Origin: a virus
Taxonomy: Duplodnaviria; Heunggongvirae; Uroviricota; Caudoviricetes
Reading direction: 5' to 3' (one strand)
DNA: 32,784 bases
Virus record (IMG/VR): IMGVR_UViG_3300045988_138410
Span: 1 to 32,784 of that record
The position numbers and the translations under genes are program-made. Below, one piece after another: positions 15,426-32,784 of the stretch. Numbering within the stretch: position 1 is the stretch's first letter; each line of letters opens with the position of its first letter. The notes below the pieces were generated by a model. It was not told where the DNA came from. It saw nothing but the letters and a program-made list of their open reading frames with translations, and ran no database searches.

Positions 15426-15429
15426 TGAA

Positions 15430-15645: not shown

Positions 15646-15712
15646 AACCCCACCTCGCAGATGCGGGTGCTGTGTAATGGAAATAAAAAGGCCACCTGAC
15701 GTGGCCACCAGA

Positions 15713-17241: not shown

Positions 17242-17266
17242 AAAAAAACCCGCTCAGTGGCGGGTT
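17242..17266 (-). terminator. tR'-like intrinsic terminator downstream of Q
   Basis: Minus strand AACCCGC-loop-GCGGGUU followed by U7. Confidence 0.65.
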
Positions 17267-17312
17267 CTTAAATCTTATCAACGGTAGACATACAAAGCCC
17301 ATCGTTGTGAAA

Positions 17313-17341
17313 ATCTTATCCATATTTTTTGAAAAATGCAA
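17313..17341 (-). promoter_or_regulatory. Candidate late promoter pR' (TTGCAT-17-TAAGAT)
   Basis: Sigma70-like hexamers on minus strand just downstream of Q stop and ~45 nt upstream of the terminator. Confidence 0.45.
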
Positions 17342-17372
17342 GCATCATGTCGTCATCTTCGGCGAAAACCAT

Positions 17373-18125: not shown

Positions 18126-18138
18126 GCTCGTTCTCCAC

Positions 18139-19134
18139 TTACGCCAGTACGCCTATTGCCAGCGCACGATCGATAAAACGAAATATCAGCTCCAGCTGGG
18201 AGCCATACTTCTCTTCAAATGCCACGGTATCCGCATGCAGCTCGTCGTGATGCTTTCTGCACAAAGGCAACACAAAGAGGTCATGCGCTTTTGTACCCAT
18301 TCCCCCCTGACCGTGGCCTATCAGGTGGTGGGGATCATCAGCAGGCTTTCCACAACATGCACACGGCTGTGTCTTAACCCAGCGCGTGTACTTTTCATTA
18401 ACCCAGCGGCGACGTTTTGGGCGTAACATAAAAGACTCCGGCGACTCCGGATCCACTTTCAGCGCCAGCACCTTTTTCGCCTTATCCTGGATGATGCTGG
18501 TGGCAGGAACCGAAGGCACAAGGTCACTTTCCCGGGTGACAGACGGCACAACAGGCTTCGGTAATCTCAGTGCCTTACGGGCTGCACTTTCCGGTAAGGC
18601 ATCCGCCAGGTCATTACGAATCAGCCACCAGCACAGTTCCGGCATTGTCACAACGTGACTGTCATCAAAACCGAGATCCCGACGCACAACAGACAACACC
18701 CAGCGGGCACAGTTATCCGTTGCCATTGATTCCAGCCGTTCCGTGAACTGATCGCGCAGCTGGTTATCGCAGTGCCAGCACAGACGGATTGCGCCCGGCG
18801 CGTGTCGCATTGTTGTCATGTTCTCGCTGTGCCAGTCGGAATGAGGCCACTGGCAGCCTTTTTCACGAAGTAACCAGCTTTCAAGACATTCCACGCCACC
18901 AGCACGACGGATCACTGCCTCATTGCGGAACACGGCCCGAACGACAGGATCATCCGCCAGCGGTTGTGATGCCGCCGGAACGGCACCACTGGCAAAAGAT
19001 GAATAACGTTCCGGCTCAGGCTCCAGCAGGACACGCCCCTGCATAAACAGGGGCATCAGCTCTGAACCAGGTCTGAACAATACGATCCCCATACGCGGGG
19101 CAATTTCAGGGGTCAGTAGTGCTCTCACAGTCAC
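18139..19134 (-). CDS. DUF968-family protein (YdfU-like)
   Basis: C-terminal CACCGKPADDPHHLIGHGQGGMGTKAHDLFVLPLCRKHHDELH motif recalled from DUF968. Confidence 0.65.
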   Translation of the reverse strand: MTVRALLTPEIAPRMGIVLFRPGSELMPLFMQGRVLLEPEPERYSSFASGAVPAASQPLADDPVVRAVFRNEAVIRRAGGVECLESWLLREKGCQWPHSDWHSENMTTMRHAPGAIRLCWHCDNQLRDQFTERLESMATDNCARWVLSVVRRDLGFDDSHVVTMPELCWWLIRNDLADALPESAARKALRLPKPVVPSVTRESDLVPSVPATSIIQDKAKKVLALKVDPESPESFMLRPKRRRWVNEKYTRWVKTQPCACCGKPADDPHHLIGHGQGGMGTKAHDLFVLPLCRKHHDELHADTVAFEEKYGSQLELIFRFIDRALAIGVLA

Positions 19135-19135
19135 C

Positions 19136-19945
19136 TCAATGAACGGTATCGAGCAGCTTTAACAGCTCAGGGAATCGGGATTCGAAGAAATGCGGCTGCG
19201 TCTCGCGCGGATTTGCGGGACTGGTGATGTTCTTGCCGAACATGCAGCCTTTCGCTGTCAGCGACCAGAATTTTTTGATGTTGTTAATCGCGGTACGGCT
19301 GTATCGTTCGCGCTGCTCGACGATCCCCAGCTTCACCATCTGGTGATATGCCTGATTAGCCGTAAGGCGGATACCATACTGTTTCAGCAGTGCACTCAGC
19401 GACAGCGTGGGGCGACTTGAGCCATCAGGCGCGTCAGCAGGAGCATCAATGGCATAGCGCGGTGCCAGATTCGGTAAGCCAACAGCCTCCTGGAGTTTCT
19501 GACAGGCACCAAGCACTGATGAGTTAGACAGGTTTAACTCCCTGCGCATAAAGTCCAGCAGAATCACACCAGCCTGCATCTTGTCAGCAGCCTGCCCGGA
19601 TAATTTTTCCGGTGCGCTGGTTACCATATCGAAAGTACGGATCACCTTCAGATGGAATGACGGGCTGATCCACATTGCATAGGCATACACCAGTTCCTTG
19701 CAGACATACGTTCCCCGTTCATTTCCCCCATGAATCACACTCACCGGGTCAACACCCAAATTCTGGGTGTTGGTCAATTCATGAACAAGCTCAACAGTTT
19801 GTTGGCTGGAAAGAAACTTTCCTGGCTCCTTGGTTCTGGCATTTGCACCAGATGCTACTGCTGCGCGATGCAGATCGTTCAGGCTGTAACGCCCATAAGC
19901 ATCACGACGAACTTCAATACCATCAATGACCATCAGATTATTCAT
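19136..19945 (-). CDS. KilA-N domain protein
   Basis: N-terminus MNNLMVIDGIEVRRDAYGRYSLNDLHRAA typical of KilA-N; GAGGAG RBS before ATG 19945. Confidence 0.7.
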   Translation of the reverse strand: MNNLMVIDGIEVRRDAYGRYSLNDLHRAAVASGANARTKEPGKFLSSQQTVELVHELTNTQNLGVDPVSVIHGGNERGTYVCKELVYAYAMWISPSFHLKVIRTFDMVTSAPEKLSGQAADKMQAGVILLDFMRRELNLSNSSVLGACQKLQEAVGLPNLAPRYAIDAPADAPDGSSRPTLSLSALLKQYGIRLTANQAYHQMVKLGIVEQRERYSRTAINNIKKFWSLTAKGCMFGKNITSPANPRETQPHFFESRFPELLKLLDTVH

Positions 19946-19964
19946 ACTTCGTTTCTCCTCTTGA

Positions 19965-20354
19965 TCAGGCGGCTGCACCCGCCGTTTTCTCGTACTTACT
20001 GATAGTGATCTCGACCCTCCCTTCCGGGATAACCGGTCCCCACTCCACCAGCATTCTTTTCACCTGACTGTCGTCTTCCCACACACCCGCGTGGGTCAGG
20101 GCGTCAAACAGCGCCTTGTTATAGTTGTCCAGATCGCGGATCCGGTTATCCGGAGGAAACAACACGATCTCCACTGAAGCAGGTGCCGACGTTGGTTTTG
20201 GCAGACGACGTAACTGCTCAACTATTGCTGCACACGCCGCGCTCTGGAATTTGCGCCCCGCCGCGCTTATCAGGCTCTTACCTGCAAACGCCCCTTTGTT
20301 GGGGTGTCGCCAGTACGTGTTCACGCTGGGCGGAAAAGGCAGTATTAGCTTCAT
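19965..20354 (-). CDS. rusA: Holliday junction resolvase RusA
   Basis: PPSVNTYW...RDLDNYNKALFDALTHAGVWEDDSQV matches recalled RusA. Confidence 0.9.
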   Translation of the reverse strand: MKLILPFPPSVNTYWRHPNKGAFAGKSLISAAGRKFQSAACAAIVEQLRRLPKPTSAPASVEIVLFPPDNRIRDLDNYNKALFDALTHAGVWEDDSQVKRMLVEWGPVIPEGRVEITISKYEKTAGAAA

Positions 20355-20677
20355 ACTTTCAGCTCCCTCTCATGTAACCAGTGGGCTGCACGCAGCCTGG
20401 CGTTTTCCTCACCGGCAAGCAGTGCGCGGATAATCCCGACCGCCTCGCTGTCGTCGTCCTTCACCGCGGTATGAAGAGTGATACCCCGGGCCACGCCACG
20501 CTTTATCGTGATGACGCCTTTTTTCTCCAGTGCGCGAAGATGCTCCACCGCTGCATTCACTGAACGGTATCCCAGCATGGTTGCCACCTCCTGATTGGTT
20601 GGCGGGAAGCCACGTTCTTTCTGGTAAGAAATCAGCATATCCAGCACCTGCTGCTGGCATTGAGTTAACGTCGTCAT
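20351..20677 (-). CDS. LexA DNA-binding-domain-only protein (no S24 peptidase domain)
   Basis: LTQCQQQVLDMLISYQKERGFPPTNQEVATMLGYRSVNAAVEHLRALEKKGVI parallels LexA N-terminal domain; only 108 aa. Confidence 0.6.
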   Translation of the reverse strand: MTTLTQCQQQVLDMLISYQKERGFPPTNQEVATMLGYRSVNAAVEHLRALEKKGVITIKRGVARGITLHTAVKDDDSEAVGIIRALLAGEENARLRAAHWLHERELKV

Positions 20678-21327
20678 GCAGCCATCTCCCTGACCAGTTT
20701 TTCCGCCTGCTGGCGAACCTGCGCCAGAAAGGCCTCACCACATGCCTCAAGTTCATCGCGCCCGATGTAGCTGATTGCCGGTCCCTTCCAGGTCTTGTCG
20801 AAAACAGCAATAGCACCAGCTAAGAAAGCGCCTGTCGGCACCTGCTTCTCATCCTTTGGGATAAACCAGGCAGGCAGTTCAAAACCAATACGCCCGCGAA
20901 TAAAAGCAATATGATCTGCATCTTCCGGCCACCACACTTCGCTGGTGGCAGCTTTGATCAGGAAAACATAGCGACCGCCTTTATCACGCATGGCACTGGC
21001 ATGCTTCATGATGTAACGCATGCCGGTGATGTATTGCCCCTCATGCTGACTGGCGCGGCTGTATGGGGGATTACCAAAGGCAGCACCTTTAAGCTCCGCA
21101 AGACGTTCTGACCAGTCATGTGCCAGCGCGTTGTCTTCCGCCGTGTAATACGCGGCACATTTGGCGTTATCACCGTCAGTGAACAGATCCAGAACAAACG
21201 GACCAAACAGGGTGTTAATTCCCCAGAAAATGTTATCCGGCGTGCGCCACTGATCGCCCACTTCCTTCAGTTCATGGGCTGGTTTGTTCCGCAGTTCCAC
21301 CAGCGCCTGGCAATATTTATTACTCAT
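20674..21327 (-). CDS. Phage Dam-family N6-adenine DNA methyltransferase (NPPY)
   Basis: AFGNPPYS motif; start chosen at ATG 21327 (MSNKYCQ) overlapping upstream stop. Confidence 0.8.
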   Translation of the reverse strand: MSNKYCQALVELRNKPAHELKEVGDQWRTPDNIFWGINTLFGPFVLDLFTDGDNAKCAAYYTAEDNALAHDWSERLAELKGAAFGNPPYSRASQHEGQYITGMRYIMKHASAMRDKGGRYVFLIKAATSEVWWPEDADHIAFIRGRIGFELPAWFIPKDEKQVPTGAFLAGAIAVFDKTWKGPAISYIGRDELEACGEAFLAQVRQQAEKLVREMAA

Positions 21328-21821
21328 TAAGCCCCCACGTAATTCCCTGACAGATACCACTCTTCACCTGATGCAGCCCGCTTATTGCTTTTCCGTAAAC
21401 ACCGTTCACGACGCGCCAGAAAATTATTTCGTTCTGGCTGGGAGTGGCTTTCACGGAATGCCGCCATCCACACCGTTGCAGCACGACGGTATAAGCCCCT
21501 AGACTCCAGTTCTTCCGCCTGGCGGGTCAGGCACAAAATCACCCGCGGGTCGTTAGTGCCGACATAGAAATTGCGCACAGGTCTGGTTTCACGAACTGGT
21601 TGTGGTTCCGGCTCCTGCGCTCTCTCAGTCAGGCGTGGGAAATGTCTGCGTGTATCTCCTTCACAACGGTGAGCCACACGCCCACTCTGACGTAACTTGC
21701 TTGCTGACTGCAGAACGCGCTGCCGTGAGTAACCTGCAAAAGCATCCGCAATATCTCCGGAAGTACACCCCGGATGGGCTTCAATGAATTTCTGAACTTC
21801 ATTCAAAAGACTCATGATCAC
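21327..21821 (-). CDS. PerC-family-like transcriptional regulator
   Basis: C-terminal AEELESRGLYRRAATVWMAAF resembles recalled PerC/Pch signature; ATGA coupling to upstream gene. Confidence 0.45.
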   Translation of the reverse strand: MIMSLLNEVQKFIEAHPGCTSGDIADAFAGYSRQRVLQSASKLRQSGRVAHRCEGDTRRHFPRLTERAQEPEPQPVRETRPVRNFYVGTNDPRVILCLTRQAEELESRGLYRRAATVWMAAFRESHSQPERNNFLARRERCLRKSNKRAASGEEWYLSGNYVGA

Positions 21822-22636
21822 CCCCTGAATCCTGCCGGGATCTGGCTGTAGTCCACGTTGTCGTAACTGGCTTTGAAGTACGGGTCCTCACGTCTGGCTG
21901 CAGATACCGCAGGAACTTCCCAGGATTCTTCGAAATGACGATCCGGACCAAAGAACGTGACAGCCTGTTTCACAAATTGTGTGCCGCTGTTACCCATCGC
22001 AGATACCCAGCCCGCATAGCGTTTCACACCTTCCAGCATGGTTTCGGGGTTTACCCCCTCATTCAAACGGGCTTTCCAGGCTTTGAAGGCTGCAGATTTT
22101 GAATTGCCACCAGCACGTTTGGGATATGCCAGCCATGCCTGCTCAAACTCCGGAGAGTATTCCGGTCGGTTTGAACGAACTCGCACAGACTCATCAGCAG
22201 ATGCACCAACAGCTATTGGTTCATTGACTGGTTCTTTGACTGGTTCAAAAGAGTGACTGGTTCTGGGTGAATCTCCTGCACTACCCCCTGGTGCAACTCC
22301 TGCACTACCTGGTGAATTTGTTGCACCAGATAGTGAATTATTTGCACTACCCCCTAGTGAATCTCCTGCACCATCAAGATGAAGAAGATAGATATTACTT
22401 GAGTTACCTTTTTCACCTTTCCGGGTGACTTTTTTTACCAGCCCGGACTCACAGAGGGCCGCAATATGATTCATCACAGAACGTTTGCTAATCTCGCACT
22501 GATCAGCGATATGCTGATAGCTGGGCCAGCACTCGCCCTGATCGCTGGCATTATCAGCCAGCTTGATCAGAACCAGTTTTCGCAATGGATTACCCACTCG
22601 AATTTTCATCGCTTTAACCATCAGCTCCATACTCAT
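21818..22636 (-). CDS. Replication initiation protein (O-like, N-terminal HTH, central low-complexity linker encoded by iterons)
   Basis: N-terminal winged-HTH-like segment; Gly/Ser/Ala linker; C-terminal EFEQAWLAYPKR motif; contains direct repeats. Confidence 0.7.
   Translation of the reverse strand: MSMELMVKAMKIRVGNPLRKLVLIKLADNASDQGECWPSYQHIADQCEISKRSVMNHIAALCESGLVKKVTRKGEKGNSSNIYLLHLDGAGDSLGGSANNSLSGATNSPGSAGVAPGGSAGDSPRTSHSFEPVKEPVNEPIAVGASADESVRVRSNRPEYSPEFEQAWLAYPKRAGGNSKSAAFKAWKARLNEGVNPETMLEGVKRYAGWVSAMGNSGTQFVKQAVTFFGPDRHFEESWEVPAVSAARREDPYFKASYDNVDYSQIPAGFRG
22265..22374. repeat. Iteron array (five ~21-24 bp direct repeats) next to an AT-rich stretch: candidate replication origin
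   Basis: Repeats GGTGAATCTCCTGCACTACCCCCT / GGTGCAACTCCTGCACTACCT / GGTGAATTTGTTGCACCAGATA / GTGAATTATTTGCACTACCCCCT / AGTGAATCTCCTGCACCATC, then AT-rich 22375-22440. Confidence 0.7.
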
Positions 22637-22857
22637 GCTGCACCTCCGAGATGCTTCATGTTTTTTCCGGAGCGAAACGCTATAAGCGGCATACTGACGC
22701 GGTAACTACGGCCCAGCGGTTCACAAATCACCTTCTGACATTCACGGTCAACCAGGCTAACACGTAGAACATGCCCTGCAGGTGTGGTGTACCACTGACC
22801 CGGACGAGGACAACGGAAAGTCTGATTGGTAAACCGTTTGAAAATATTCCGGATCAT
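22633..22857 (-). CDS. Small hypothetical protein, Cys-containing, translationally coupled on both sides
   Basis: ATGA overlaps with both upstream and downstream genes. Confidence 0.45.
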   Translation of the reverse strand: MIRNIFKRFTNQTFRCPRPGQWYTTPAGHVLRVSLVDRECQKVICEPLGRSYRVSMPLIAFRSGKNMKHLGGAA

Positions 22858-24002
22858 TTGCGCCCCCTTACCTCTGAAGGGTTCAGCGACAAATTTATGA
22901 GGCAGGCCAGTGCCGAAGCATCATTAATATAGTCATACAAGCTAACAGCCAGCGGAGATTCGGCTTTTGCCAACATAGGATAAAGCTGCTGCAGCCAGAC
23001 CTGATGAATTGATGAAATGTAGGAATAGAGAACGCTGGCGTTATGTGCAACGTCGCTCAGTACAGAGGGATTTGAAAGCTGTTTCTCCATCTGGTTAAAG
23101 GCATTGATGTATGCCTCTTTGAACTGGGCAGCACGTTTACCCATGAAACCCATAGCAAGAAACGCAAAGCCGTCGCGGGTTATTTGGTAGCAAGGAAGTT
23201 TGCGACCTGTGCAATCAGTGTAATCACTCACCGAAAAATTGCGGGCAGTGAATGATGCTGAGCATTCAAGCGTGCGGATCTTTTTCAGTACATCGCCATG
23301 ACGTTTGGAGAAGAAGTTGGCAACAGCCAGGGATGAAGTAACAGCCTGACCATCAACGATGGCAATTTCAGGTTGAGTGAGGGTTGGGATCGTAGCCATG
23401 ATGGCAGCCTCCGATAACAGTGAATTACCTTCACCACCGGAAACGCCAATTTCGCTGGTGGTGAACTGAACGGGGTTGGCGTAACCGGCGTTATCGGAAA
23501 CCGGCGCACCTTTCGGTGCCCCCGTCCAGCCCACCATAATTTGGGTGTGCACAGACGCAGACGATAAAAAAGACGCTGGCGCGTCATATATCGCCGATAA
23601 CATTTCCAGGACGCCAATCCCGGCACCCGCTTTATAAGGTGCCTGAACAGTGTAACGTCCCGGAATGGCAGAATCAATGTGCTGGTGGTCCTTCACACTC
23701 AACAAAATCACGCCTGAATTTCCACAAAGGACTAAAGCACTCATGCGGGTAGTCTTTGCGAAGATAGATAACGCGCTGTGTTTCTGGCTCCCAACGAATA
23801 ACATGGACATAAAGCCCTCTTCCATCACGAAACCAGCGGTTAAGTTCCTGCACAACTCGCCCCCCACAGTCAGGTAAAGTTCTCTGTGGTTACTTACAGC
23901 CAGGTGATTTGGTAATCTGCATTCATGCCGTAACAACAGGTGTTCAGCGACACTGACCACCAGCTGTTGCGACAAACGGTTATTTGCCGTTAAACTGTTC
24001 AT
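22854..24002 (-). CDS. Rha-domain regulatory protein with ~200-aa N-terminal extension
   Basis: Central QPEIAIVDGQAVTSSLAVANFFSKRHGDVLKKIRTL..YQITRDGFAFLAMGF resembles Rha family; ATGA coupling to upstream gene supports long start. Confidence 0.55.
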   Translation of the reverse strand: MNSLTANNRLSQQLVVSVAEHLLLRHECRLPNHLAVSNHRELYLTVGGELCRNLTAGFVMEEGFMSMLFVGSQKHSALSIFAKTTRMSALVLCGNSGVILLSVKDHQHIDSAIPGRYTVQAPYKAGAGIGVLEMLSAIYDAPASFLSSASVHTQIMVGWTGAPKGAPVSDNAGYANPVQFTTSEIGVSGGEGNSLLSEAAIMATIPTLTQPEIAIVDGQAVTSSLAVANFFSKRHGDVLKKIRTLECSASFTARNFSVSDYTDCTGRKLPCYQITRDGFAFLAMGFMGKRAAQFKEAYINAFNQMEKQLSNPSVLSDVAHNASVLYSYISSIHQVWLQQLYPMLAKAESPLAVSLYDYINDASALACLINLSLNPSEVRGRK

Positions 24003-24562
24003 GCGTTAGTTTCTCCACAGACACAAAACGCCACGACGCCCGGAGCTGCACACTCGCGGGCGTCACTCTTTTCTGGAGCGCAAAAGATTTTGTAGACCAG
24101 TGCTGCATGCTCCTGGAGCTTCGAAATTGACAGATACAACTCATCATTAATTGCTGTCTGCTCGTGTGGCTCCACTACCCCATCTTCGATTGCCGAACGA
24201 ATCTGCTTTGAGTAACTCCCGATCTGTTCGATGACTTCCAGCAGGCGCTGGTTTATATCGGCGTTCTCTACTTCCTCAATTTCAGGAAGCGATACAAACA
24301 CCCCACCAGCAGACTGTGCGACAGCATCCGCAATGTAGTGAGTGCCAGCCGCGCGCTGTAAAATCATTGCCCATCCCAGCGGGAAAATCTGATCGCCATC
24401 TGCACGAAGGCGGTTGAATAAAGCGTTCTCTGTTACATCCAGCCACTCAGCAGCTTCAGCGTACCCCCCCGGCAACGCCGCGATAGTTTTTCTGACAGCT
24501 TTCACGTACCACTCAGGCTGTTTTTCTACTTTCCAGTGATGCTTACCCACGGTTAGCCTCAT
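23999..24562 (-). CDS. CII-like / YdaT-like early regulatory protein
   Basis: Position immediately after cro-like gene; TIAALPGGYAEAAEWLDVTENALFNRL segment; family assignment tentative. Confidence 0.45.
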   Translation of the reverse strand: MRLTVGKHHWKVEKQPEWYVKAVRKTIAALPGGYAEAAEWLDVTENALFNRLRADGDQIFPLGWAMILQRAAGTHYIADAVAQSAGGVFVSLPEIEEVENADINQRLLEVIEQIGSYSKQIRSAIEDGVVEPHEQTAINDELYLSISKLQEHAALVYKIFCAPEKSDARECAAPGVVAFCVCGETNA

Positions 24563-24794: not shown

Positions 24795-24884
24795 ACAATA
24801 TGTACCTCCGATATACATATTACATGATTGAGATGAACCTTCAAGATACTTGTACCCTATCGGTACAAAGGTTTTAATTTCGTT
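24795..24884. promoter_or_regulatory. Immunity control region: divergent pR (TTGAAG-16-TAATAT toward cro) and pRM-like promoter with inverted repeat TTGTACC-N5-GGTACAA (24850-24868)
   Basis: Hexamers and palindrome read directly; cI ATG has no obvious SD, suggesting a leaderless transcript. Confidence 0.55.
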
Positions 24885-25559
24885 ATGAAAACAGTCCATG
24901 ACATCCGGCGGTCTAACGCCAGAAAACTGAGAGATGGTGTTGGCGGGAATTCTTCCTTTGCCACCATGATTGATCGCGAGCCAACCCAGACCAGCAGGTT
25001 TATGGGAGATGGTGCTACTAAAAATATCGGTGACAGCATGGCACGGCACATCGAAAAATGTTTCGACCTGCCTGTCGGATGGCTTGATCAAGAACACCAG
25101 ACAACAAACATCACAAAAAAACCTGATGTTTCAATTACTAACAAACAAATAACGTTAGTCCCTGTCATATCATGGGTACAGGCCGGAGCATGGAAAGAAG
25201 TTGGCTATTCTGAGGTTGATTTGAGCACAGCAGAAACTTATCCCTGCCCTGTACCCTGTGGCGAAATGACTTATATCTTGCGGGTGATTGGTGATTCAAT
25301 GATTGATGAGTACCGCCCAGGAGACATGATTTTTGTAGATCCTGAAGTCCCTGCCTGCCACGGTGACGACGTTATTGCATTGATGCACGATACGGGCGAA
25401 ACCACCTTTAAGCGGTTGATAGAAGATGGAACACAGCGTTACCTCAAAGCATTAAACCCAAACTGGCCTGAACCTTACATTAAGATCAACGGTAATTGCT
25501 CTATAATTGGTACAGTAATTTTCTCAGGAAAACCAAGAAGATACAAAATAAAGGCCTAA
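24885..25559 (+). CDS. cI: CI-type prophage repressor with LexA-like S24 autopeptidase domain
   Basis: C-terminal VQAGAW (Ala-Gly cleavage site) ...VIGDSM...K Ser-Lys dyad pattern; divergent from cro-like gene. Confidence 0.85.
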   Translation: MKTVHDIRRSNARKLRDGVGGNSSFATMIDREPTQTSRFMGDGATKNIGDSMARHIEKCFDLPVGWLDQEHQTTNITKKPDVSITNKQITLVPVISWVQAGAWKEVGYSEVDLSTAETYPCPVPCGEMTYILRVIGDSMIDEYRPGDMIFVDPEVPACHGDDVIALMHDTGETTFKRLIEDGTQRYLKALNPNWPEPYIKINGNCSIIGTVIFSGKPRRYKIKA

Positions 25560-25572
25560 TCAATATTTATAA

Positions 25573-25593
25573 CCTGCTTCGGCAGGTTTTTTT
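25573..25593 (+). terminator. Intrinsic terminator after cI (CCTGCTTCGGCAGG + T7)
   Basis: GC stem with TTCG loop followed by T-run. Confidence 0.75.
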
Positions 25594-25597
25594 ATAC

Positions 25598-25630
25598 TTG
25601 ACAATGTACCCTTGAGATACATAATGTATC
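25598..25630 (+). promoter_or_regulatory. pL-like early-left promoter (TTGACA-17-ATAATG) with overlapping palindrome GATACATAATGTATC
   Basis: Consensus -35, 17-bp spacer, near-consensus -10; 15-bp perfect palindrome over -10; shares ATGTACC motif with oR region. Confidence 0.65.
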
Positions 25631-26063
25631 TAAAAGAAACATGCCACAGGCAAGATTAAACAAAATTTGGTTGTAACACGGCGTATGGCACATGCGTCGT
25701 TAGCGGTCTGGGGACGTTAAAGGGGACAATCCACTCCTTGCTCGGGCAAACAAACCAGGTAGCCGGAATGTGCAAGTCAATGAGGATGCTGATAAGACGC
25801 CTAACCAGCGTGGCGATTCGGTTTGACGCCTGGGAAGAGACCAGGGTGCAACGATGAGGGCATTTATGGAACCGCGACAAAGTGTGGTGCCGTAACAGGC
25901 TAAGTGCTCTCAGCGTTGTGGTGAATGCGCAGGCTGATGCGCGAAAGACATTGCAGCTATTGCGGAAAAGAGCTGTTCGGCGGGGCAATTAAACGCCCGT
26001 GAGAGTCTGAAATAACCGCAAGCCGGAGATCAGCACCGGTCACCACAACAGCCACTGCTTTGG

Positions 26064-26197
26064 CGGTACCAGTTTGTACACTTACTTCCGGCTGGTACCG
26101 CTCTTTTTACAAAACAGAGAAGAGCATCACCGGACGACGGGCTCATAACCCAATCCATCCGTGCGGCAGTCACCGCAGGTGTTCTTCTCTGTTTTGT
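26064..26197 (+). promoter_or_regulatory. Structured leader element: boxA-like CGCTCTTTTTA flanked by two long stem-loops
   Basis: Inverted repeats CGGTACCAG/CTGGTACCG (26064-26100) and ACAAAACAGAGAAGA/TCTTCTCTGTTTTGT (26109-26197) with inner hairpin; function inferred only. Confidence 0.35.
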
Positions 26198-26245
26198 GGA
26201 GAAACCAACCGACCTTGCAGGGTCGATATGATGAGGAGCAGCAAA

Positions 26246-26608
26246 ATGGCTAGCGAACGCAGTACTGATGTGCAGGCATTTATCGGGGAGCTGGACGGCG
26301 GCGTATTTGAAACCAAAATCGGCGCAGTTCTCAGTGAAGTCGCTTCCGGTGTGATGAACACGAAAACCAAAGGTAAGGTCTCGCTCAACCTAGAAATCGA
26401 ACCGTTTGATGAGAACCGTGTGAAAATCAAACACAAACTCTCATATGTTCGCCCGACTAACCGCGGGAAAATTTCCGAAGAAGACACCACCGAAACGCCG
26501 ATGTATGTCAATCGCGGTGGTCGCCTGACTATTCTGCAGGAAGACCAGGGACAATTACTGACTCTTGCCGGTGAACCTGACGGAAAACTCCGCGCAGCAG
26601 GTCATTAA
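26246..26608 (+). CDS. Hypothetical protein, first gene of early-left operon
   Basis: 120 aa from ATG 26246 with GAGGAG RBS; no family recognised. Confidence 0.55.
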   Translation: MASERSTDVQAFIGELDGGVFETKIGAVLSEVASGVMNTKTKGKVSLNLEIEPFDENRVKIKHKLSYVRPTNRGKISEEDTTETPMYVNRGGRLTILQEDQGQLLTLAGEPDGKLRAAGH

Positions 26609-26673
26609 TATCGTTCTTAATTAACTGATTATTTATCTCATCACTGAATATCTTTATATAGTGAGGACTTATT

Positions 26674-27498
26674 ATGTCTCAGAACTTAGACGCAACCGCA
26701 ATTAATCAAATCCATGCCCTTATTTCTGCTCAGGGTGTTAATGAAATTATCAGTAAGATTGGTGCCGATGCTGTGGCATTGCCTGAGAATTTCCGCATTC
26801 ATGATCTGGAAAAATTTAATTTAAATCGCTTCCGTTTCCGTGGTGCGCTTTCCACTGCCAGCATCGATGACTTTACCCGTTATTCTAAAGATCTTGCAGA
26901 TGAAGGCACCCGCTGCTTTATCGATGCCGATAATATGCGTGCCGTCAGTGTGCTTAACCTGGGTACTATTGATGAACCAGGTCACGCAGATAACACTGCC
27001 ACTCTCAAACTGAAAAAGACAGCACCGTTCTCTGCTCTGTTGTCTGTTAATGGCGAGCGTAACTCCCAGAAGTCACTGGCAGAATGGATCGAAGACTGGG
27101 CCGACTACCTTGTAGGCTTTGATGCTAATGGTGACACCATTCAGGCAACAAAAGCGGCTGCGGCAGTCCGTAAAATCACGATTGAAGCAAACCAGACCGC
27201 TGATTTTGAAGATAATGACTTCAGCGGCAAACGCTCCCTGATGGAGTCTGTCGAAGCGAAGACCAAAGACATTATGCCAGTGGCATTTGAATTTAAATGC
27301 GTTCCGTTTGAAGGCCTGAAAGAACGTCCGTTTAAATTACGCCTCAGCATTATCACTGGCGATCGTCCTGTACTGGTTCTGCGCATTATTCAGCTGGAAG
27401 CAGTCCAGGAAGAAATGGCTAACGAATTTCGTGATCTGCTTGTTGAGAAATTCAAGGACAGCAAAGTAGAAACCTTTATTGGTACTTTCACCGCCTGA
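26674..27498 (+). CDS. DUF2303-family protein (YfdQ-like)
   Basis: 274 aa; size and sequence character recalled from CPS-53 YfdQ; tentative. Confidence 0.5.
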
Positions 27499-27625
27499 TT
27501 TCATTACTGCAAATGCCCCTGCGGGGGCATTTATGGAAACGTAATTGACTCAATAATCGCCGGATGGTGAGGGCTTCCTTTTACCCGAGCTCAGCGCAGT
27601 GCAGCGCATATACGTGGAGAACAAA

Positions 27626-28162
27626 ATGTCATTTATTAAAACTTTTTCCGGGAAGCATTTTTATTATGACAGGATAAATAAAGACAACATCGATATTAAC
27701 GATATCGCAGTTTCCCTTTCAAATATCTGTCGCTTTGCAGGACATCTTTCACACTTCTACAGTGTCGCCCAGCATGCGGTGCTTTGCAGCCAGCTGGTGC
27801 CGCAAGAATTTGCTTTTGAAGCGTTAATGCATGATGCAACAGAAGCATATTGCCAGGACATCCCCGCGCCACTGAAACGACTTCTTCCTGACTATAAACG
27901 GATGGAAGAAAAAATAGACGCCGTAATCCGTGAGAAATACGGGTTACCTCCTGTTATGAGCACGCCAGTGAAATATGCCGATCTCATTATGCTGGCAACC
28001 GAACGCCGTGATCTCGGGCTTGATGATGGCTCTTTCTGGCCTGTTCTGGAAGGTATCCCGGCAACAGAGATGTTCAAAGTTATTCCACTGTCGCCAGGCC
28101 ATGCCTACGGGATGTTTATGGAACGTTTTAACGAGTTATCGGAGTTACGCAAATGCGCATGA
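27626..28162 (+). CDS. HD-domain phosphohydrolase (YfdR-like 5'-deoxynucleotidase)
   Basis: HD signature H..L.HDA.EA; start chosen at ATG 27626 (ORF-track start is GTG); GGAG RBS. Confidence 0.65.
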   Translation: MSFIKTFSGKHFYYDRINKDNIDINDIAVSLSNICRFAGHLSHFYSVAQHAVLCSQLVPQEFAFEALMHDATEAYCQDIPAPLKRLLPDYKRMEEKIDAVIREKYGLPPVMSTPVKYADLIMLATERRDLGLDDGSFWPVLEGIPATEMFKVIPLSPGHAYGMFMERFNELSELRKCA

Positions 28163-28515
28163 ATGTTTTCGAAATGGAAGGGTTTCTTCGCGGGAAATGT
28201 GTACCGCGAGATCTGAAAGTGAATGAAACAAATGCTGAGTACCTGGTACGTAAATTCGATGCGCTTGAAGCTAAATGTGCGGCACTGGAAAACAAAATAA
28301 TACCAGTGTCAGCTGAACTGCCGCCAGCAAATGAAAGTGTTCTGTTATTTGATGCTAACGGAGAAGGCTGGCTAATTGGCTGGCGTTCTCTCTGGTACAC
28401 CTGGGGACAAAAAGAAACCGGAGAATGGCAGTGGACATTTCAGGTCGGGGACCTTGAAAACGTCAATATCACTCACTGGGCAGTAATGCCGAAAGCACCG
28501 GAGAATAAGAAATGA
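28153..28515 (+). CDS. DUF551-family phage protein (YfdS-like)
   Basis: C-terminal HWAVMPKAPE as in DUF551; GGAG RBS. Confidence 0.55.
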   Translation: MRMNVFEMEGFLRGKCVPRDLKVNETNAEYLVRKFDALEAKCAALENKIIPVSAELPPANESVLLFDANGEGWLIGWRSLWYTWGQKETGEWQWTFQVGDLENVNITHWAVMPKAPENKK

Positions 28516-28715
28516 GCGTGATAAAAACTCATACGGGAATTGTTATCACCCGAGACGGTCCGCAGGTAAAAAAACTGCACCAGACAAAGCGGATGTGGGT
28601 CGTCGGAAAAAACGAGTTTTACCACAAAGAAAACGGACGCCGCCACTTTGCAGAAAATACTCGCCGCCGACTGCTGATCGATACCATCAAGCCTATCGAG
28701 GTGAAGCATATTTAA
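28512..28715 (+). CDS. Small basic hypothetical protein
   Basis: 67 aa; ATGA overlap with upstream stop; GGAG RBS. Confidence 0.4.
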   Translation: MSVIKTHTGIVITRDGPQVKKLHQTKRMWVVGKNEFYHKENGRRHFAENTRRRLLIDTIKPIEVKHI

Positions 28716-29082
28716 ACAGAACGAAAAATCTATCGCTCAAATCGCTGAGTATATCCCGCGTGCGTGCCGGGGTATGCAGTTGCAGGAAGCCAAAGCACGC
28801 CTGGAGAAAAAAATTGCGCTCTATATCGATGACGGCTGTGATACTGCCGTTCTTAACGCGGCGTTCGCGCCAGCTCTTAACAGTCATACGCGAGAGTCTT
28901 TTTTTTCGTGCATCGCAGCGCAGATCCGCAAAGGAGGCAGCCAGTGAGTAGGTTCGTAAGGTTACAGATACGTATATCTGAATAATTAAATTCAGTTCTG
29001 TAAATAAAATTTAATCCTTAACCGGAGGGATTCCTGCACCCTCAGAACATCAGGAGACCGCCCGAAAGGGCGGTAATGAAAA

Positions 29083-29550
29083 ATGGCTGAATTAACCAAA
29101 TGGCTACAAAACACGATTACCGGAATTGAAACGGTAGTAGACGATAAATCGTTTGTATGTGATGAAATAGTATTCAAAATCGATGTGGTTAAAAACGTAC
29201 TTACCGCATTTAAAGTCGCGCTGGCATCGCTGGAAGCCGAACCGGTGACATGGCGATATCGCTACGTGAGAAAAGGCGTTACGAACTTTCAGGAGAAGCC
29301 GTGGGTTGGTGACTGGAAATATGTACCGACAAAAGAGGATTGCAACGACAGGCCGAACTATGAAATTCAGGCGTTATTCACGGCCCAGCCTGTGCCACTG
29401 ACACCCGAAGGATTGATTAAAGCGGTGCGCTTCTATGAACAGGTTAAGAGTGAAAATCCGCCAGTCGAAACCGGAGCATGGAAAGACGCTGTTGACTGGG
29501 TGCTCAAAGAGGCTTGTCAGGCTGTAAACATTGGCATCAAAGGAGAGTGA
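29083..29550 (+). CDS. Hypothetical protein with N-terminal module paralogous to 29746 gene
   Basis: N-terminus LTKWLQNTITGIE...LTAFKVALASLEA parallels LTKEWLQNTITSIE...LTALKIALASLAA. Confidence 0.5.
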   Translation: MAELTKWLQNTITGIETVVDDKSFVCDEIVFKIDVVKNVLTAFKVALASLEAEPVTWRYRYVRKGVTNFQEKPWVGDWKYVPTKEDCNDRPNYEIQALFTAQPVPLTPEGLIKAVRFYEQVKSENPPVETGAWKDAVDWVLKEACQAVNIGIKGE

Positions 29551-29551
29551 G

Positions 29552-29743
29552 ATGAACGGACAAATATCAATTGTTCGACCGGGAGCATGTGACGATCGCG
29601 AGATACGAATGATTATTCGTCTGGCGATGGGGAAAACAATAACAGCTCTCATTACTCCTGAAAATCTCGCATTAGCATTAACAGGAAAGTCAGACTTGCC
29701 AGTAGAGCTAAAGCTGCGAAATGTTGAGATTAAGGTGAAATAG
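29552..29743 (+). CDS. Small hypothetical protein
   Basis: 63 aa from ATG 29552 with AAAGGAGAG RBS. Confidence 0.4.
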   Translation: MNGQISIVRPGACDDREIRMIIRLAMGKTITALITPENLALALTGKSDLPVELKLRNVEIKVK

Positions 29744-29745
29744 TT

Positions 29746-30645
29746 ATGAATACTCTTACCAAAGAATGGTTACAGAACACGATTACCAGCATTGAGTCAG
29801 CACGGGATGAAATACCGTTCGGACTCGATGAAGATCAAAACAACATGCTTACCGCATTAAAAATTGCACTGGCATCACTGGCAGCAGTATCGGATGAACG
29901 AGCAGCCTATGAATTATTTATGGAGAAGCGTTTCGGGGAATCTGTAGATCGCCGTAGGGCAAAAAATGGCGATAGAGAATACATGGCATGGGATATGGCG
30001 CTTGGCTGGATTATCTGGTGTCACCGCGCCTCCATGCTTCAGGGTAGCCAACCTGTAAGCCAAACTTACAACTTGCCAGAATTAATCGAAGGCATGGAAG
30101 TTTCCATTGATGTAAGCACTTGTGATGCTGATTTAGGTAATCGCTATTTCGGCACCGTCACCGAGGCGTTAGAACTTGATACTGCCAAGAATGGTTACAT
30201 CCTCCTGGTTCAGGACGCAGAGCCAAACTTCGATATAAATGGCAACTCTCCGGTAATTCCGGATGGTTTATCCACGGTATGCGCTGAGGCTTATCAGGTT
30301 GTAGGAGTTATGGCAGATGCGCTTGGTGTATTCGGTGATGCAGCAGTACAGAAAGTTCTGGATAACCTGTCACAGCAAAAACTTGTTCACAGAGATGTGC
30401 TGCCGTTCTCGCTTCCGGTAACTCCGGATGGTTGGATAAGCTGTAGTGAGCGAATGCCGGAAAAGGGCCAGAACGTGCTCATTTCGGTGAATTTCGATAG
30501 CTCTCTGGTTGAACCGCTAATATGCTCCGCACGCTATACCGGAAGCACTTTTCGGCGCGGAGATGCAACGATTAAGCCGGGTAATGGTATTGAGCAAGCA
30601 ACTCACTGGATGCCGCTACCGGAACCGCCGCAGGAGGTGAAGTGA
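29746..30645 (+). CDS. Hypothetical protein, shared N-terminal module plus C-terminal DUF551-like region
   Basis: C-terminal HWMPLPEPP; AAGGTGA RBS. Confidence 0.55.
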   Translation: MNTLTKEWLQNTITSIESARDEIPFGLDEDQNNMLTALKIALASLAAVSDERAAYELFMEKRFGESVDRRRAKNGDREYMAWDMALGWIIWCHRASMLQGSQPVSQTYNLPELIEGMEVSIDVSTCDADLGNRYFGTVTEALELDTAKNGYILLVQDAEPNFDINGNSPVIPDGLSTVCAEAYQVVGVMADALGVFGDAAVQKVLDNLSQQKLVHRDVLPFSLPVTPDGWISCSERMPEKGQNVLISVNFDSSLVEPLICSARYTGSTFRRGDATIKPGNGIEQATHWMPLPEPPQEVK

Positions 30646-31217
30646 TGAACAACTTAATGATCGACCTTGAGACGATGGGGAAAAATAAGGATGCACCGAT
30701 CGTTTCCATTGGCGCGGTGTTCTTCACTCCAGAAACCGGAGACATCGGACAAGAATTTTATGCGGTTGTCAGCCTGGACAGTGCTATGGAGCAAGGGGCC
30801 ACACCTGACGGCGATACCATCCTGTGGTGGTTGAAACAAAGCCCTGAAGCACGAGCTGCAATCTGTATTGATGATACTTTGTCGATCAGCGATGCACTCT
30901 CTGAACTGAGCCATTTCATTAATCGGCACGCAGACAATACGAAATATTTAAAAGTTTGGGGTAACGGGGCCACCTTCGACAACGTAATTTTACGCGGAGC
31001 TTATGAACGAGCAGGACAAATCTGCCCATGGGCGTACTGGAATGATCACGATGTACGCACGATCGTTACGCTTGGGCGTTCCATCGGATTCGACCCCAAA
31101 ATGGACATGCCTTTCGATGGCGAACGGCACAACGCCCTGGCTGATGCTCGTCATCAGGCAAAATATGTTTCAGCTATCTGGCAGAAATTAATTCCTGCCA
31201 CCAGCACAGAATTATGA
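30645..31217 (+). CDS. DnaQ-like 3'-5' exonuclease (DEDDh)
   Basis: MIDLETMG (Exo I), WGNGATFD (Exo II), H...ALADA (Exo III); AGGAGGTGA RBS. Confidence 0.7.
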   Translation: MNNLMIDLETMGKNKDAPIVSIGAVFFTPETGDIGQEFYAVVSLDSAMEQGATPDGDTILWWLKQSPEARAAICIDDTLSISDALSELSHFINRHADNTKYLKVWGNGATFDNVILRGAYERAGQICPWAYWNDHDVRTIVTLGRSIGFDPKMDMPFDGERHNALADARHQAKYVSAIWQKLIPATSTEL

Positions 31218-31253
31218 TTTTCCCGGGTGCAGCCGGTTTTGATGGAGAAAATT

Positions 31254-31535
31254 ATGAACACCTTGTTTTTACTGATGGCTGAATTCAATACCCCAAATAT
31301 TGAACTCTCAGCAGTTAGCCAAAAGTACTTTGGTATGAGTCCAGCCACGGCAGAAGCAAAAGCAAACGCTTGTAAGTTGCCCGTTCCAACATATCGCATC
31401 GGCACATCACAAAAAGCAAAACGTTGCATCAATATTCAAGATCTTGCGGAATACATAGACAAAAGGCGAGAAGAAGGACGTATCGAGTGGGAACAGGTCA
31501 GAACAGTCAAACAGAAGGGCAAAGAACATCACTAA
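31254..31535 (+). CDS. Excisionase-like / PrtN-family small DNA-binding protein
   Basis: FNTPNIELSAVSQKYFGMS...AEYIDKRREEG pattern recalled from PrtN/Xis-like family; last gene before terminator. Confidence 0.5.
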   Translation: MNTLFLLMAEFNTPNIELSAVSQKYFGMSPATAEAKANACKLPVPTYRIGTSQKAKRCINIQDLAEYIDKRREEGRIEWEQVRTVKQKGKEHH

Positions 31536-31537
31536 AG

Positions 31538-31565
31538 AAAAAACCCGCCTGAAGGCGGGTTTTCA
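31538..31565. terminator. Bidirectional intrinsic terminator (ACCCGCC-TGAA-GGCGGGT, A-run upstream, T-run downstream)
   Basis: Hairpin flanked by AAAGAAAAAA and TTTTC; sits between convergent operons. Confidence 0.75.
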
Positions 31566-31582
31566 AAAAGCACCAGCTATGA

Positions 31583-31756
31583 TCATGCTGCTTTGCGACG
31601 ACGAAGCTTACCCTGCTGCTCTTTACCAGAGACAGTAGCGTGAGTGAACGCATTAGGAGCAGCCTTCATCAGAACTTCAACAGCAGCACCCATACCTGCG
31701 AATGCTTTCATTGTGTCGAACTTAACCTGTGGCTTGGTTGCTTTTTGATCTTCCAT
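31583..31756 (-). CDS. Small 57-aa protein with basic C-terminal tail (below ORF-track cutoff)
   Basis: MEDQKATKPQVKFDTMKAFAGMGAAVEVLMKAAPNAFTHATVSGKEQQGKLRRRKAA; GGAG RBS 7 nt upstream. Confidence 0.45.
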   Translation of the reverse strand: MEDQKATKPQVKFDTMKAFAGMGAAVEVLMKAAPNAFTHATVSGKEQQGKLRRRKAA

Positions 31757-31795: not shown

Positions 31796-32215
31796 TTACT
31801 CATCATCAATAGATGATACGCAATATTTATTTTTAAATTTAAGGTTCTTTGGCGTAACTTCATCAGATATATCAAAACCGTCCAGAATTCTATTGAATGT
31901 AGCTTCTGGCATATCATCATGAACAGAAATCTCACCCGATTGCTGCTTTCTAACCATGTTATCCACTCGCCAAATTATAGCTTCAGCGTAAACAACATAA
32001 CTTGGATGCTTGATAAAGCGATGATCACCTGAATTCAAGACGCAAGACGGATCGTGGGGAACCCCATCCTTGATACTAGAAATATTAACAACTAAAACAC
32101 AATAACAATCGTTAACGGGGTAATAAACAGGATCATTACAAATCACATGAAGATGATTGCATGGCCCAGTTGGGGCAAGCACAGTTCCTTTCCTGTATGG
32201 CTGATAATCCGTCAT
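31796..32215 (-). CDS. Uncharacterised 139-aa protein, candidate toxin/effector partner of the Panacea-like gene
   Basis: 4-bp ATGA overlap with upstream gene; AT-rich codon usage; no family recognised. Confidence 0.55.
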   Translation of the reverse strand: MTDYQPYRKGTVLAPTGPCNHLHVICNDPVYYPVNDCYCVLVVNISSIKDGVPHDPSCVLNSGDHRFIKHPSYVVYAEAIIWRVDNMVRKQQSGEISVHDDMPEATFNRILDGFDISDEVTPKNLKFKNKYCVSSIDDE

Positions 32216-32784
32216 GATAATTGCAAAGAAAATTCCTTAAGTTTCTGAGATTCTTCCATTTTGCCAATTATGCGATTAGCCTCATCCTCGCTTTTACCCT
32301 CACTGATCAGCATTTCTTTCAGGTCTATAGGCTTACGAGAATTGCCAGGATTGTGCCACTCTGGACAAACGCTTTCTAAATGCGTCATGTTTGCGAGATC
32401 AAATCGGTTCATATGCCCATACAGAGAATAGATTTCATCTAAAATCCGGATATCTGCACGGCTCAACTCATCAAAGACCTCGTCTGCATCCATTTCCCTC
32501 GGATCTGAACGCAACAACACATCATGCCCGTTCGTCTCTATCAAGTTGTACCAGTAGTCACCAATGCCTTCAGCCTTACCACGAATCAAGTTCAGCGTAT
32601 TCGACATGACTGGACCAAATTTCATAGAGTAAAGGCTATCTTCGCCGATCATCCTGCCATGCTTCAAAATCGACTTGCGGTTAGACAGATAGAGCAGCTT
32701 CATCAATTTCAGATATGCCATGCGCCCACCTCGCTTAAGAAGTAGGTATGCAGCCATTTGAGCTACTTTTTCTTCGCAAAACAT
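32212..32784 (-). CDS. Panacea-domain (DUF4065, SocA/PanA-like) antitoxin-type protein; ATG at window edge
   Basis: N-terminus VAQMAAYLLLKRGGRMAYLKLMKLLYLSNRKSILKHGRMIGEDSLYSMKFGPV follows the A-Y-L...KLQKLLY...GPV pattern recalled for DUF4065. Confidence 0.6.
   Translation of the reverse strand: MFCEEKVAQMAAYLLLKRGGRMAYLKLMKLLYLSNRKSILKHGRMIGEDSLYSMKFGPVMSNTLNLIRGKAEGIGDYWYNLIETNGHDVLLRSDPREMDADEVFDELSRADIRILDEIYSLYGHMNRFDLANMTHLESVCPEWHNPGNSRKPIDLKEMLISEGKSEDEANRIIGKMEESQKLKEFSLQLS

Follow-up and report, generated by a model that had tools for sequence, protein, structure and literature searches.

Judging by their sequences, three genes in the early-left operon of this virus, whose products belong to DUF2303, the HD-domain group and DUF551, are near-identical copies of yfdQ, yfdR and yfdS, respectively, E. 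coli prophage genes that are already known and have been studied. Together with yfdP they would make up the yfdP-yfdQ-yfdR-yfdS block of a lambdoid prophage of the CPS-53/SfV/mEp460 type, an assignment that the protein alignments make near certain. The best-documented activity of this block is shut-down of host chromosome initiation. We give roughly even chances to the explanation as a whole, in which gene identity and host-initiation shut-off are taken together, and somewhat less than even chances to shut-off as the natural role of the block. The first-pass annotation of the window (the whole stretch of DNA analysed, 32,784 nucleotides) had presented the cluster as an open question, but the genes are known and experimental literature on them exists (PMC4776307). 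It had also passed over yfdP (26246-26608), a member of the conserved block. The early-left operon and the elements in front of it are laid out as follows.

25571-25588, terminator-like hairpin after cI
25598..25625, + strand, candidate pL promoter, TTGACA-16-CATAAT, 11 of 12 consensus matches
25632..26245, + strand, leader of about 614 nt, strongly structured RNA
26246..26608, + strand, yfdP, 120 aa, phrog_204 (unknown function), constant upstream partner of yfdQ
26674..27498, + strand, yfdQ, 274 aa, Pfam DUF2303 (PF10065), E 2.3e-92
27626..28162, + strand, yfdR, 178 aa from ATG, predicted HD-domain 5'-deoxynucleotidase and DnaA-binding protein
28153..28515, + strand, yfdS, 120 aa, DUF551, phrog_583
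28512-28715 (67 aa) and about 28708/28774-28947, + strand, two small ORFs, phrog_1226 and phrog_1344 (unknown function)
29083..29743, + strand, 155-aa protein and an ORF of 63-70 aa, phrog_660, phrog_60 and phrog_1222
29746..30645, + strand, 299-aa protein with a C-terminal DUF551 domain, phrog_60
30642..31217, + strand, DEDD 3'-5' exonuclease, Rv2179c-like, Pfam PF16473, E 1.9e-75, phrog_255
31254..31535, + strand, excisionase/PrtN-family gene at the operon end, Pfam PyocinActivator, E 4.2e-23, phrog_1300

Compared with their K-12 counterparts, YfdP is identical at 119 of 120 residues, YfdQ at 271 of 274 (99%), YfdR at 172 of 178 (97%) and YfdS at all 117 aligned residues (of 120). The same genes are named by PGAP in FG31-1, whose genome is 99.9% identical. 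The yfdR reading frame extends upstream to a GTG at 27599; the ATG at 27626 is the PGAP start in both FG31-1 and K-12. The DUF2303 match of YfdQ is full-length (309.5 bits against a cut-off of 26.6, residues 7-272 of 274), and the earlier description of this protein as YfdQ-like was correct. The DUF551 (PF04448) score of YfdS is marginal (22.2 bits against a cut-off of 22), and the 299-aa protein carries the domain at residues 229-296 with E 5.2e-22 and 78.9 bits. Where several DUF551 proteins had been placed in the cluster, there is one within 26674-28515, and the second lies outside it, at 29746-30645. In relatives, the equivalent of the 299-aa gene is annotated as encoding an "ead/Ea22-like family protein", and there is a published description of an Ea22 variant whose C-terminal domain is DUF551 (PMC10834534). 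The 155-aa protein and this next large ORF have a common N-terminal segment (MAELTKWLQNTITGIE and MNTLTKEWLQNTITSIE), and the small ORFs of 28512..28947 are hypothetical proteins in the FG31-1 annotation.

The cluster had been assigned to a lambda-like slot, and its layout bears this out: the DUF2303, HD and DUF551 ORFs are present on the + strand of the early-left operon at their annotated positions, downstream of a near-consensus promoter and upstream of the PrtN/excisionase gene. An operator-like sequence, ATGTACCCTTGAGATACATA (25604-25623), sits in the spacer of the candidate pL; this 20-mer is 80% identical to positions 24800-24819 and related to 24851-24867, both in the cro-cI intergenic region. 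The leader RNA has a predicted folding energy of -227.8 kcal/mol, compared with -197.4 +/- 6.0 for shuffled sequences (z = -5.0). It matches no Rfam family, and the ORF list shows neither a + strand ORF of at least 40 aa nor an N-like gene within it. We propose that the block is transcribed, as part of the early-left operon, from a pL under repressor control.

What is known of the activity of these genes comes from published work, which reports both DnaA binding and an overexpression-dependent inhibition of initiation. [quoted passage not shown] The YfdR-DnaA interaction has been taken up in the later DnaA literature. In the mechanism that we favour, YfdR would bind the Phe46 patch of DnaA domain I in competition with DiaA and the DnaB helicase, and its action in vivo would require YfdQ and one DUF551-type partner, YfdS or YfdT. 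We infer that on induction or infection the block stalls firing of oriC, which may free the host replication machinery for a phage whose only initiator is O/DnaD-like and which lacks a helicase loader of the P type; YfdP and YfdQ would contribute to this shut-off.

Several published observations speak against this mechanism (PMC4776307). The initiation block appeared with multicopy or overexpressed genes only, initiation was unchanged when yfdQRST was deleted, and an overexpression artefact is allowed for by the authors themselves. YfdQ, YfdS and YfdT, though required, showed no detectable binding to DnaA or YfdR. A role in host takeover, suggested in the first-pass annotation, is thus supported (PMC4776307), but by way of DnaA, while the route through nucleotide pools that had been envisaged there is without direct support.

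Of the two domain models that were to be confirmed by HMM search, DUF2303 was (E 2.3e-92), whereas the Pfam HD models stayed below the gathering cut-off (YfbR-like, 24.3 against 25.9 bits; HD_3, 16.9 against 22.5 bits). YfdR can nevertheless be assigned to the HD superfamily because of its motif, its match to phrog_318, "deoxyribonucleoside 5' monophosphate phosphatase" (E 4.9e-111), its match to PDB 2gz4 (Atu1052; E 2e-13), in which VAQH, HDA.E and K.AD are aligned, and its 97% identity to K-12 YfdR. The HD residues, whose absence had been named in advance as grounds for rejecting the assignment, are present on alignment: the predicted metal ligands are H50 (VAQH), H69-D70 (MHDATE) and D119 (VKYAD). 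They line up with Atu1052, and with YfbR at the HD pair. All four are intact in 57 of 58 homologue loci (56 of 57 once the locus with an interrupted gene is set aside) and, together with E73 and D78, they are near-invariant across YfdR homologues down to 40% identity.

Such strict conservation indicates that catalysis matters, which argues against a pure DnaA-binding model, as the latter has no need of it. YfdR may be mainly catalytic, dephosphorylating dNMPs or another phosphorylated nucleotide early in infection, with DnaA binding secondary; we consider this possible but rather unlikely. Besides the conserved ligands, E73 and D78, the phrog_318 label points in this direction, as does the annotation of K-12 YfdR as a 5'-deoxynucleotidase (EC 3.1.3.89), a weak one going by Zimmerman et al. 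2008 as that work is cited in PMC4776307. The comparisons with characterised enzymes pull the other way. YfdR is not a YfbR equivalog (NCBIfam NF003009, 19.9 bits against a cut-off of 122; 21% identity), and from its sequence, equal length and equal neighbours it appears to be the orthologue of K-12 YfdR and not of YfbR. A MAFFT alignment of three sequences that included YfbR put the first His and the last Asp in the wrong columns, and the motifs and the HMMER-2gz4 alignment were used instead. The dNMPase Dmp of phage T5 is an HD protein. As a phage prototype of the "dNMP phosphatase" label it was rejected, for BLASTP found no similarity between it and YfdR (E 3.7). By orthology, dNMP phosphatase activity and Phe46-dependent DnaA binding would both extend from the K-12 protein, the one for which they are known, to the protein considered here.

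The distribution of the genes among phages bears on all of these readings. In 76 of 78 species loci yfdQ is immediately preceded by yfdP, and the pair ranges from Enterobacterales to Hahella, Pseudomonas, Limnohabitans and Alcanivorax; phages of Vibrio and Xanthomonas and phage ArgO145 show the same order. At 58 of the 78 yfdP-yfdQ loci the pair is accompanied by the HD gene, which is thus a frequent accessory. The other 20 loci and distant phages lack it, so that the core of the module must have an activity for which YfdR is not needed, a point against the shut-off reading. In one phage record the YfdP-like gene bears a DUF2303 label. It is conceivable, though not probable, that the true unit is an old two-gene module, yfdP-yfdQ, shared by enterobacterial lambdoid prophages and by phages of Vibrio, Xanthomonas, Thalassomonas and Acinetobacter. 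YfdR, as an HD enzyme, and the DUF551 proteins would be exchangeable add-ons that point the module towards DnaA in the lineage of E. coli. YfdQ could form a large homo-oligomer, and the module might have a novel early phage function, for instance as a scaffold for capturing or remodelling proteins of host replication or repair.

The two core proteins were examined at the level of sequence and structure. Members of the YfdQ family are uniformly about 265-282 aa long and single-domain, and their near-invariant residues include several Arg, one His and one Glu-Asp pair. YfdQ matches PDB 9o7m, "YfdQ Protein" (E 1.5e-44), an entry with 36 chains of one sequence. The AF2 model of YfdQ (pLDDT 78.8) gave no informative fold match, the best Foldseek hit having E about 0.1 against a PDB library of entries released up to 2026-04-08, 9o7m not among them. 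YfdP had no match in Pfam or NCBIfam profile searches of local copies. The possibility that YfdQ or YfdP is a hidden SSAP or SSB was discarded, as no SSAP, SSB or recombinase fold was found among the model matches, and so was the idea that YfdP is a duplicated piece of YfdQ (hhalign probability 0.1).

The conservation of the yfdP-yfdQ pair as a core in 76 of the 78 loci would also suit an accessory module for DNA transactions, in which YfdP and YfdQ serve phage replication, recombination or repair as an oligomeric DNA- or protein-handling complex and do not inhibit host replication. Genes of this kind are often close by: the pair adjoins Gam-RecT-Exo-SSB in ArgO145, a DnaQ-like nuclease and an SSB stand beside it in Vibrio phage 34E29.1, a recombinase, an exonuclease and an SSB lie at most 4 kb away in Xanthomonas phage Olaya, and a DEDD exonuclease is found within 5 kb in 26 of the 78 loci. 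Such adjacency is weak evidence, however, because phage early regions are rich in these functions. The 36 chains of a YfdQ homologue in 9o7m and the near-invariant Arg, His and Glu-Asp residues would fit, as would the weak sensitivity of a yfdQ deletion to MMS and H2O2 (PMC4776307). On the other hand, YfdQRST showed no stable binding to oriC DNA (PMC4776307), and co-occurrence with full Rec modules makes it unlikely that yfd-type genes are hidden recombinases (PMC12315714). On balance, we regard a DNA-transaction role as improbable.

Less probable still, to the point of being a long shot, is a counter-defence or superinfection-exclusion module that neutralises a host immune system or excludes competing phages. 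Both ideas had been raised in the first-pass annotation and have no direct support. The block does occupy an accessory early region, is very widespread and contains proteins of unknown fold, and plasmid-made YfdQ triggered plaques of the resident phage SW1 in BW25113 (bioRxiv 10.1101/413146), indicating an effect on the development of another phage. Yet the reading is based on position only, the literature searched contained no published anti-defence phenotype, and the PADLOC defence-protein models did not match the YfdP/Q/R/S-type proteins of the block; the DEDD exonuclease alone gave a weak match, to a CRISPR-associated DEDDh model.

Host-initiation shut-off, which remains our preferred reading, is separate from another property of this phage, the absence of a recombination module. 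From cI to xis (24885-31535), Pfam and PHROGs searches of the early-left operon revealed no SSAP, 5'-3' exonuclease, SSB or Gam/Abc2. The DEDD exonuclease at 30642..31217 is not a recombination exonuclease of the Red/RecE type, and DnaQ-type nucleases near int are not counted among Rec module genes (PMC12315714). In the early-right operon RusA (nin region) is the only recombination-related gene, and the replication module encodes an O/DnaD-like initiator only, with no P-type helicase loader. The reported lack of exo/bet/gam, recE/recT and erf genes therefore extends to both early operons. The window contains 21 Chi sites, compared with 1.3 expected by shuffling; 16 are on the late-gene strand (active orientation), 12 of them in the cro-to-lysis arm, and 5 are on the other strand. 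The published "no Rec module, high Chi" class is defined by the lack of a Rec module, at least 8 Chi sites in active orientation and at most 6 in inactive orientation (PMC12315714), and the window, which is part of the prophage, has 16 and 5, respectively. From its sequence, the phage fits this class and would use host RecBCD-RecA. This strategy accounts for the lack of a Rec module better than replacement by the yfd cluster does. The suggestion that the cluster stands in place of a Rec module is further weakened by phage ArgO145, where the same genes lie beside a complete Gam-RecT-Exo-SSB module (PMC12315714).

As a discovery the block carries little weight, its genes being named, annotated by a standard pipeline and partly characterised; yfdP together with yfdQRS is covered to at least 80% in 2446 of 5426 complete E. 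coli genomes (about 45%). What the present analysis adds is yfdP as the constant partner, the accessory nature of the HD gene, the conservation of its ligands and the lack of an informative fold for YfdQ and YfdP. Its lasting value is to draw attention to yfdP-yfdQ, an early module that is very common in phages, whether or not the HD enzyme accompanies it. Mechanistic data so far come from overexpression of the genes of a cryptic prophage. Should the block prove to silence host oriC in lytic growth, two published strands would be joined, and a role of YfdP and YfdQ in a phage that has neither helicase loader nor recombination module would be demonstrated.

The closest known system is the K-12 cryptic prophage CPS-53 (KpLE1), in which yfdP-yfdQ-yfdR-yfdS(-yfdT) has equal order and spacing and encodes proteins that are 99%, 99%, 97% and 100% identical. 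Unlike in CPS-53, the block is here part of an apparently intact lambdoid prophage with a repressor, pL, late and lysis genes; in FG31-1, a near-identical genome, the prophage lies beside a partial gene for a tRNA-dihydrouridine synthase, whereas CPS-53 is located at argW, and the position of yfdT is taken by small ORFs, Ea22-like/DUF551 genes and the DEDD exonuclease. Phages mEp460 and SfV (orf29-31), Stx-converting phages and phiSTEC1575-Stx2k are 96-98% identical over 72-87% of positions 26000-31600, with a mosaic that differs downstream of yfdS. The orf31 product of SfV is YfdQ at 99.6%, and SfV homologues are mentioned in PMC4776307. Phages of the LLS type (LLS, ST64B and phiNP; Zheng, Casjens, Davidson, Amundsen and Smith 2025, PMC12315714) likewise lack an SSAP, exonuclease, SSB and anti-RecBCD function. 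They and the window have in common an early-left yfdP/yfdQ/HD trio, an O-like initiator with no P-type loader, and many Chi sites in late orientation, concentrated towards the right arm.

At the protein level, YfdR shares the motifs H...HD...D and HDA.E...D.P.P.K with E. coli YfbR (a dCMP phosphohydrolase) and Agrobacterium Atu1052 (2gz4). It is about 20 residues shorter than YfbR, its first His stands closer to the HD pair, and DnaA binding has been reported for YfdR only, not for YfbR or Atu1052. In acting on the host initiator DnaA it resembles lambda P, B. subtilis SirA and DiaA/HobA, and the patch of domain I to which YfdR binds (Phe46/Phe49) is also the one used by SirA and DiaA (PMC4776307). 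Lambda P serves phage replication and at the same time inhibits DnaA (PMC4776307), but it is a binder of DnaA domain III and a helicase loader, whereas YfdR is an HD-fold enzyme, and the likeness is one of target, with no kinship of sequence or fold claimed.

The window is part of a lambdoid prophage, which in E. coli FG31-1 (a genome 99.9% identical to the window prophage) adjoins a partial tRNA-dihydrouridine synthase gene.

Early-left operon and flanking genes
24885-25559, S24-peptidase (cI/LexA-type) repressor gene, ahead of a tight run of plus-strand ORFs
26246-26608, +, yfdP-like gene
26674-27498, +, DUF2303 protein, unambiguous
27599/27626-28162, +, HD protein
28153-28515, +, DUF551 protein of 120 aa, marginal (22.2 bits against a cut-off of 22)
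between this gene and the second DUF551 gene, +, several small ORFs
29746-30645, +, second DUF551 protein
30642-31217, +, DEDD 3'-5' exonuclease
~31254-31535, +, PrtN/excisionase gene
within 31796-32784, -, Panacea/SocA-domain protein of 190 aa, whose ORF runs to the window end
within 31796-32784, -, 139-aa protein without a Pfam match

The DUF2303 - HD - DUF551 cluster that the first-pass annotation placed at 26674-28515 was found there; its three genes were called correctly but yfdP was left out, and of the DUF551 proteins assigned to the cluster the second lies outside those coordinates. The DUF2303 domain was confirmed by HMM search (E 2.3e-92). Pfam HD-type models scored under their cut-offs against the HD protein, which is nevertheless assigned as such because it matches PHROG 318 (E 4.9e-111), aligns with PDB 2gz4 (E 2e-13) over the VAQH, HDA.E and K.AD motifs, so that the HD motif residues are present, and is 97% identical to a characterised HD protein. 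The adjacent genes at 29083-29550 and 29746-30645 (+) share an N-terminal segment (MAELTKWLQNTITGIE / MNTLTKEWLQNTITSIE) and differ in their C-termini, one of them terminating in DUF551, a mosaic Ea22-like architecture; the second is annotated in two pieces in FG31-1. The convergent minus-strand genes past the excisionase gene resemble a toxin-antitoxin pair, placed where the prophage ends.

Comparison with cryptic prophage CPS-53 of E. coli K-12 makes the identity of the block as yfdPQRS near certain: 119/120 residues are identical in YfdP, 271/274 in YfdQ, 172/178 in YfdR and 117/117 aligned residues in YfdS (a 120-aa protein). Of 5426 complete E. coli genomes, 2446 cover at least 80% of the 2.27-kb block, and among the phages that carry it are mEp460, SfV and many Stx-converting phages; the genes already receive these names from the standard annotation pipeline. 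The flagged feature is known and very common, and the YfdP-YfdQ pair is widely conserved.

Directly 3' of cI lies a terminator-like hairpin, followed by a near-consensus promoter at 25598-25625 with ATGTACCCTTGAGATACATA in its spacer. Since ATGTACCCTTGAGATACATA is related to two sequences between cro and cI, as expected of OL and OR, the sequence gives good support to expression of the yfd block from a putative pL under repressor control. The candidate promoter is separated from yfdP by a leader of ~614 nt (25632-26245, +), in which we found neither a plus-strand ORF of at least 40 aa, nor an N-like gene, nor a match to an Rfam family. Its predicted fold (-227.8 kcal/mol against -197.4 +/- 6.0 for shuffles, z = -5.0) includes a long hairpin at ~26105-26205, and the leader may act in cis as an antitermination or regulatory RNA.

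Linkage was examined at 78 loci with a YfdQ relative, from as many genome records. In 76 of them yfdQ is directly preceded, on its own strand, by a gene for a YfdP homologue, including relatives of 40-47% identity from Hahella, Limnohabitans, Pseudomonas, Hydrogenophaga, Methylibium and Alcanivorax; in the other two yfdQ is only partial. YfdR follows in 58/78, a DEDD exonuclease lies within 5 kb in 26/78, and DUF551 genes are sporadic (YfdS-type in 5, other DUF551 in 13). HMM searches (E 1e-30 to 5e-49) retrieved the pair in Vibrio phage 34E29.1, Xanthomonas phage Olaya and phage ArgO145, from all three of which the HD gene is absent. Judging by annotation or gene size, phages of Thalassomonas, Halomonas and Acinetobacter and further Vibrio phages would have this pair as well. 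In ArgO145 (L085 3991-7822) the pair directly follows Gam-RecT-Exo-SSB, and in the Vibrio podophage 34E29.1 (L083 2979-5419) it is flanked by a DnaQ-like nuclease and SSB. A less likely rival to the DnaA model given below is that YfdP-YfdQ acts in DNA transactions.

Of the 58 loci with a YfdR homologue, 57 keep all of the metal ligands H50, H69, D70 and D119 (the gene being split in two in one of the 57), which argues for selection on YfdR catalysis. A primarily catalytic role for YfdR is a further rival, also less likely than the DnaA model. The only degenerate homologue, at 6723-7325 of an Atlantibacter MAG locus (L017), has F for H69 and E for D119 and perhaps lacks catalytic activity.

DUF2303 comprises 1787 clusters at 50% identity (E up to 0.001); the 150 members listed are all single-domain, at ~265-282 aa apart from a few fragments, and nearly invariant residues include R52, R56, H104, E140, D141, R166, R223, R237 and E242. 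The AF2 model of YfdQ (pLDDT 78.8) gave no significant Foldseek match in PDB, and the model of YfdP (pLDDT 68), one long helix with three long strands, returned nothing informative. PDB 9o7m, entitled 'YfdQ Protein', matches window YfdQ (E 1.5e-44) and neither YfdP nor YfdR; it is missing from the fold library (releases up to 2026-04-08), and a literature search turned up no paper on it. Its 36 chains of one sequence imply that the YfdQ homologue forms a large homo-oligomer. Homology between YfdP and YfdQ was considered and rejected, none being detectable.

The absence of exo/bet/gam genes was correctly noted, and the window fits a known pattern: ~22% of lambdoid phages have no Rec module and carry many active-orientation Chi sites, denser towards the right end (Zheng, Casjens, Davidson, Amundsen and Smith 2025, PMC12315714). 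That study set this class at no fewer than 8 active and no more than 6 inactive sites and did not count DnaQ-type nucleases near int as Rec module genes. The window has 21 Chi sites (GCTGGTGG; 1.3 expected from shuffles), at 8804-24310, plus 31198; 16 are on the late-gene (–) strand, 12 of them between cro and the lysis genes, and 5 are in the opposite orientation, which places it within that class. The early-left operon has none apart from one within the exonuclease gene. The yfdP/yfdQ/HD trio is frequent in early-left operons with and without Rec modules (PMC12315714). For the missing genes, the high-Chi strategy is a better explanation than replacement of the Rec module by the cluster. The first-pass observation is correct and its interpretation partly supported.

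Noguchi and Katayama 2016 (PMC4776307; Zimmerman et al. is among the works it cites) isolated the yfd cluster by its ability, in multicopy, to suppress the over-initiation of hda-185. [quoted passage not shown] Deletion of yfd genes left initiation unchanged, and the authors themselves allow an overexpression artefact; yfdQ and yfdS deletions gave weak MMS and H2O2 sensitivity (PMC4776307). Later papers on DnaA present YfdR as a prophage protein that competes with DnaB for domain I of DnaA. Production of YfdQ led to plaques by a resident phage (Song et al., bioRxiv 10.1101/413146). In another rival reading, an unlikely one, the block would serve in counter-defence or exclusion.

The working model adopts the published activity: early after derepression, YfdR would bind DnaA domain I and lower initiation at oriC with the help of YfdQ and a DUF551 protein. 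We hold only tentatively that this published activity is the natural role of the block; as a model it is incomplete, because the HD ligands are conserved, yfdR is dispensable in many loci and yfdP-yfdQ linkage is tight.

Remaining prophage genes (all -), in transcription order, by descending coordinates
Cro
cII-like protein and Rha-like regulator
21818-22636 and neighbours, O/DnaD-like initiator (HTH_36, DnaD_N)
PerC-like protein
methyltransferase
RusA
KilA-N and DUF968/HNH proteins
Q
lysis genes
terminase, portal, head protease/capsid
tape measure

The replication module has no P-, DnaC- or DnaB-type gene and seems to be made up of one O-like/DnaD-like initiator. We infer that the DnaA model would suit a phage with only such an initiator, which must take DnaB from its host; phage LLS is likewise described with an O-like initiator and without a P-, DnaC- or DnaB-type gene.
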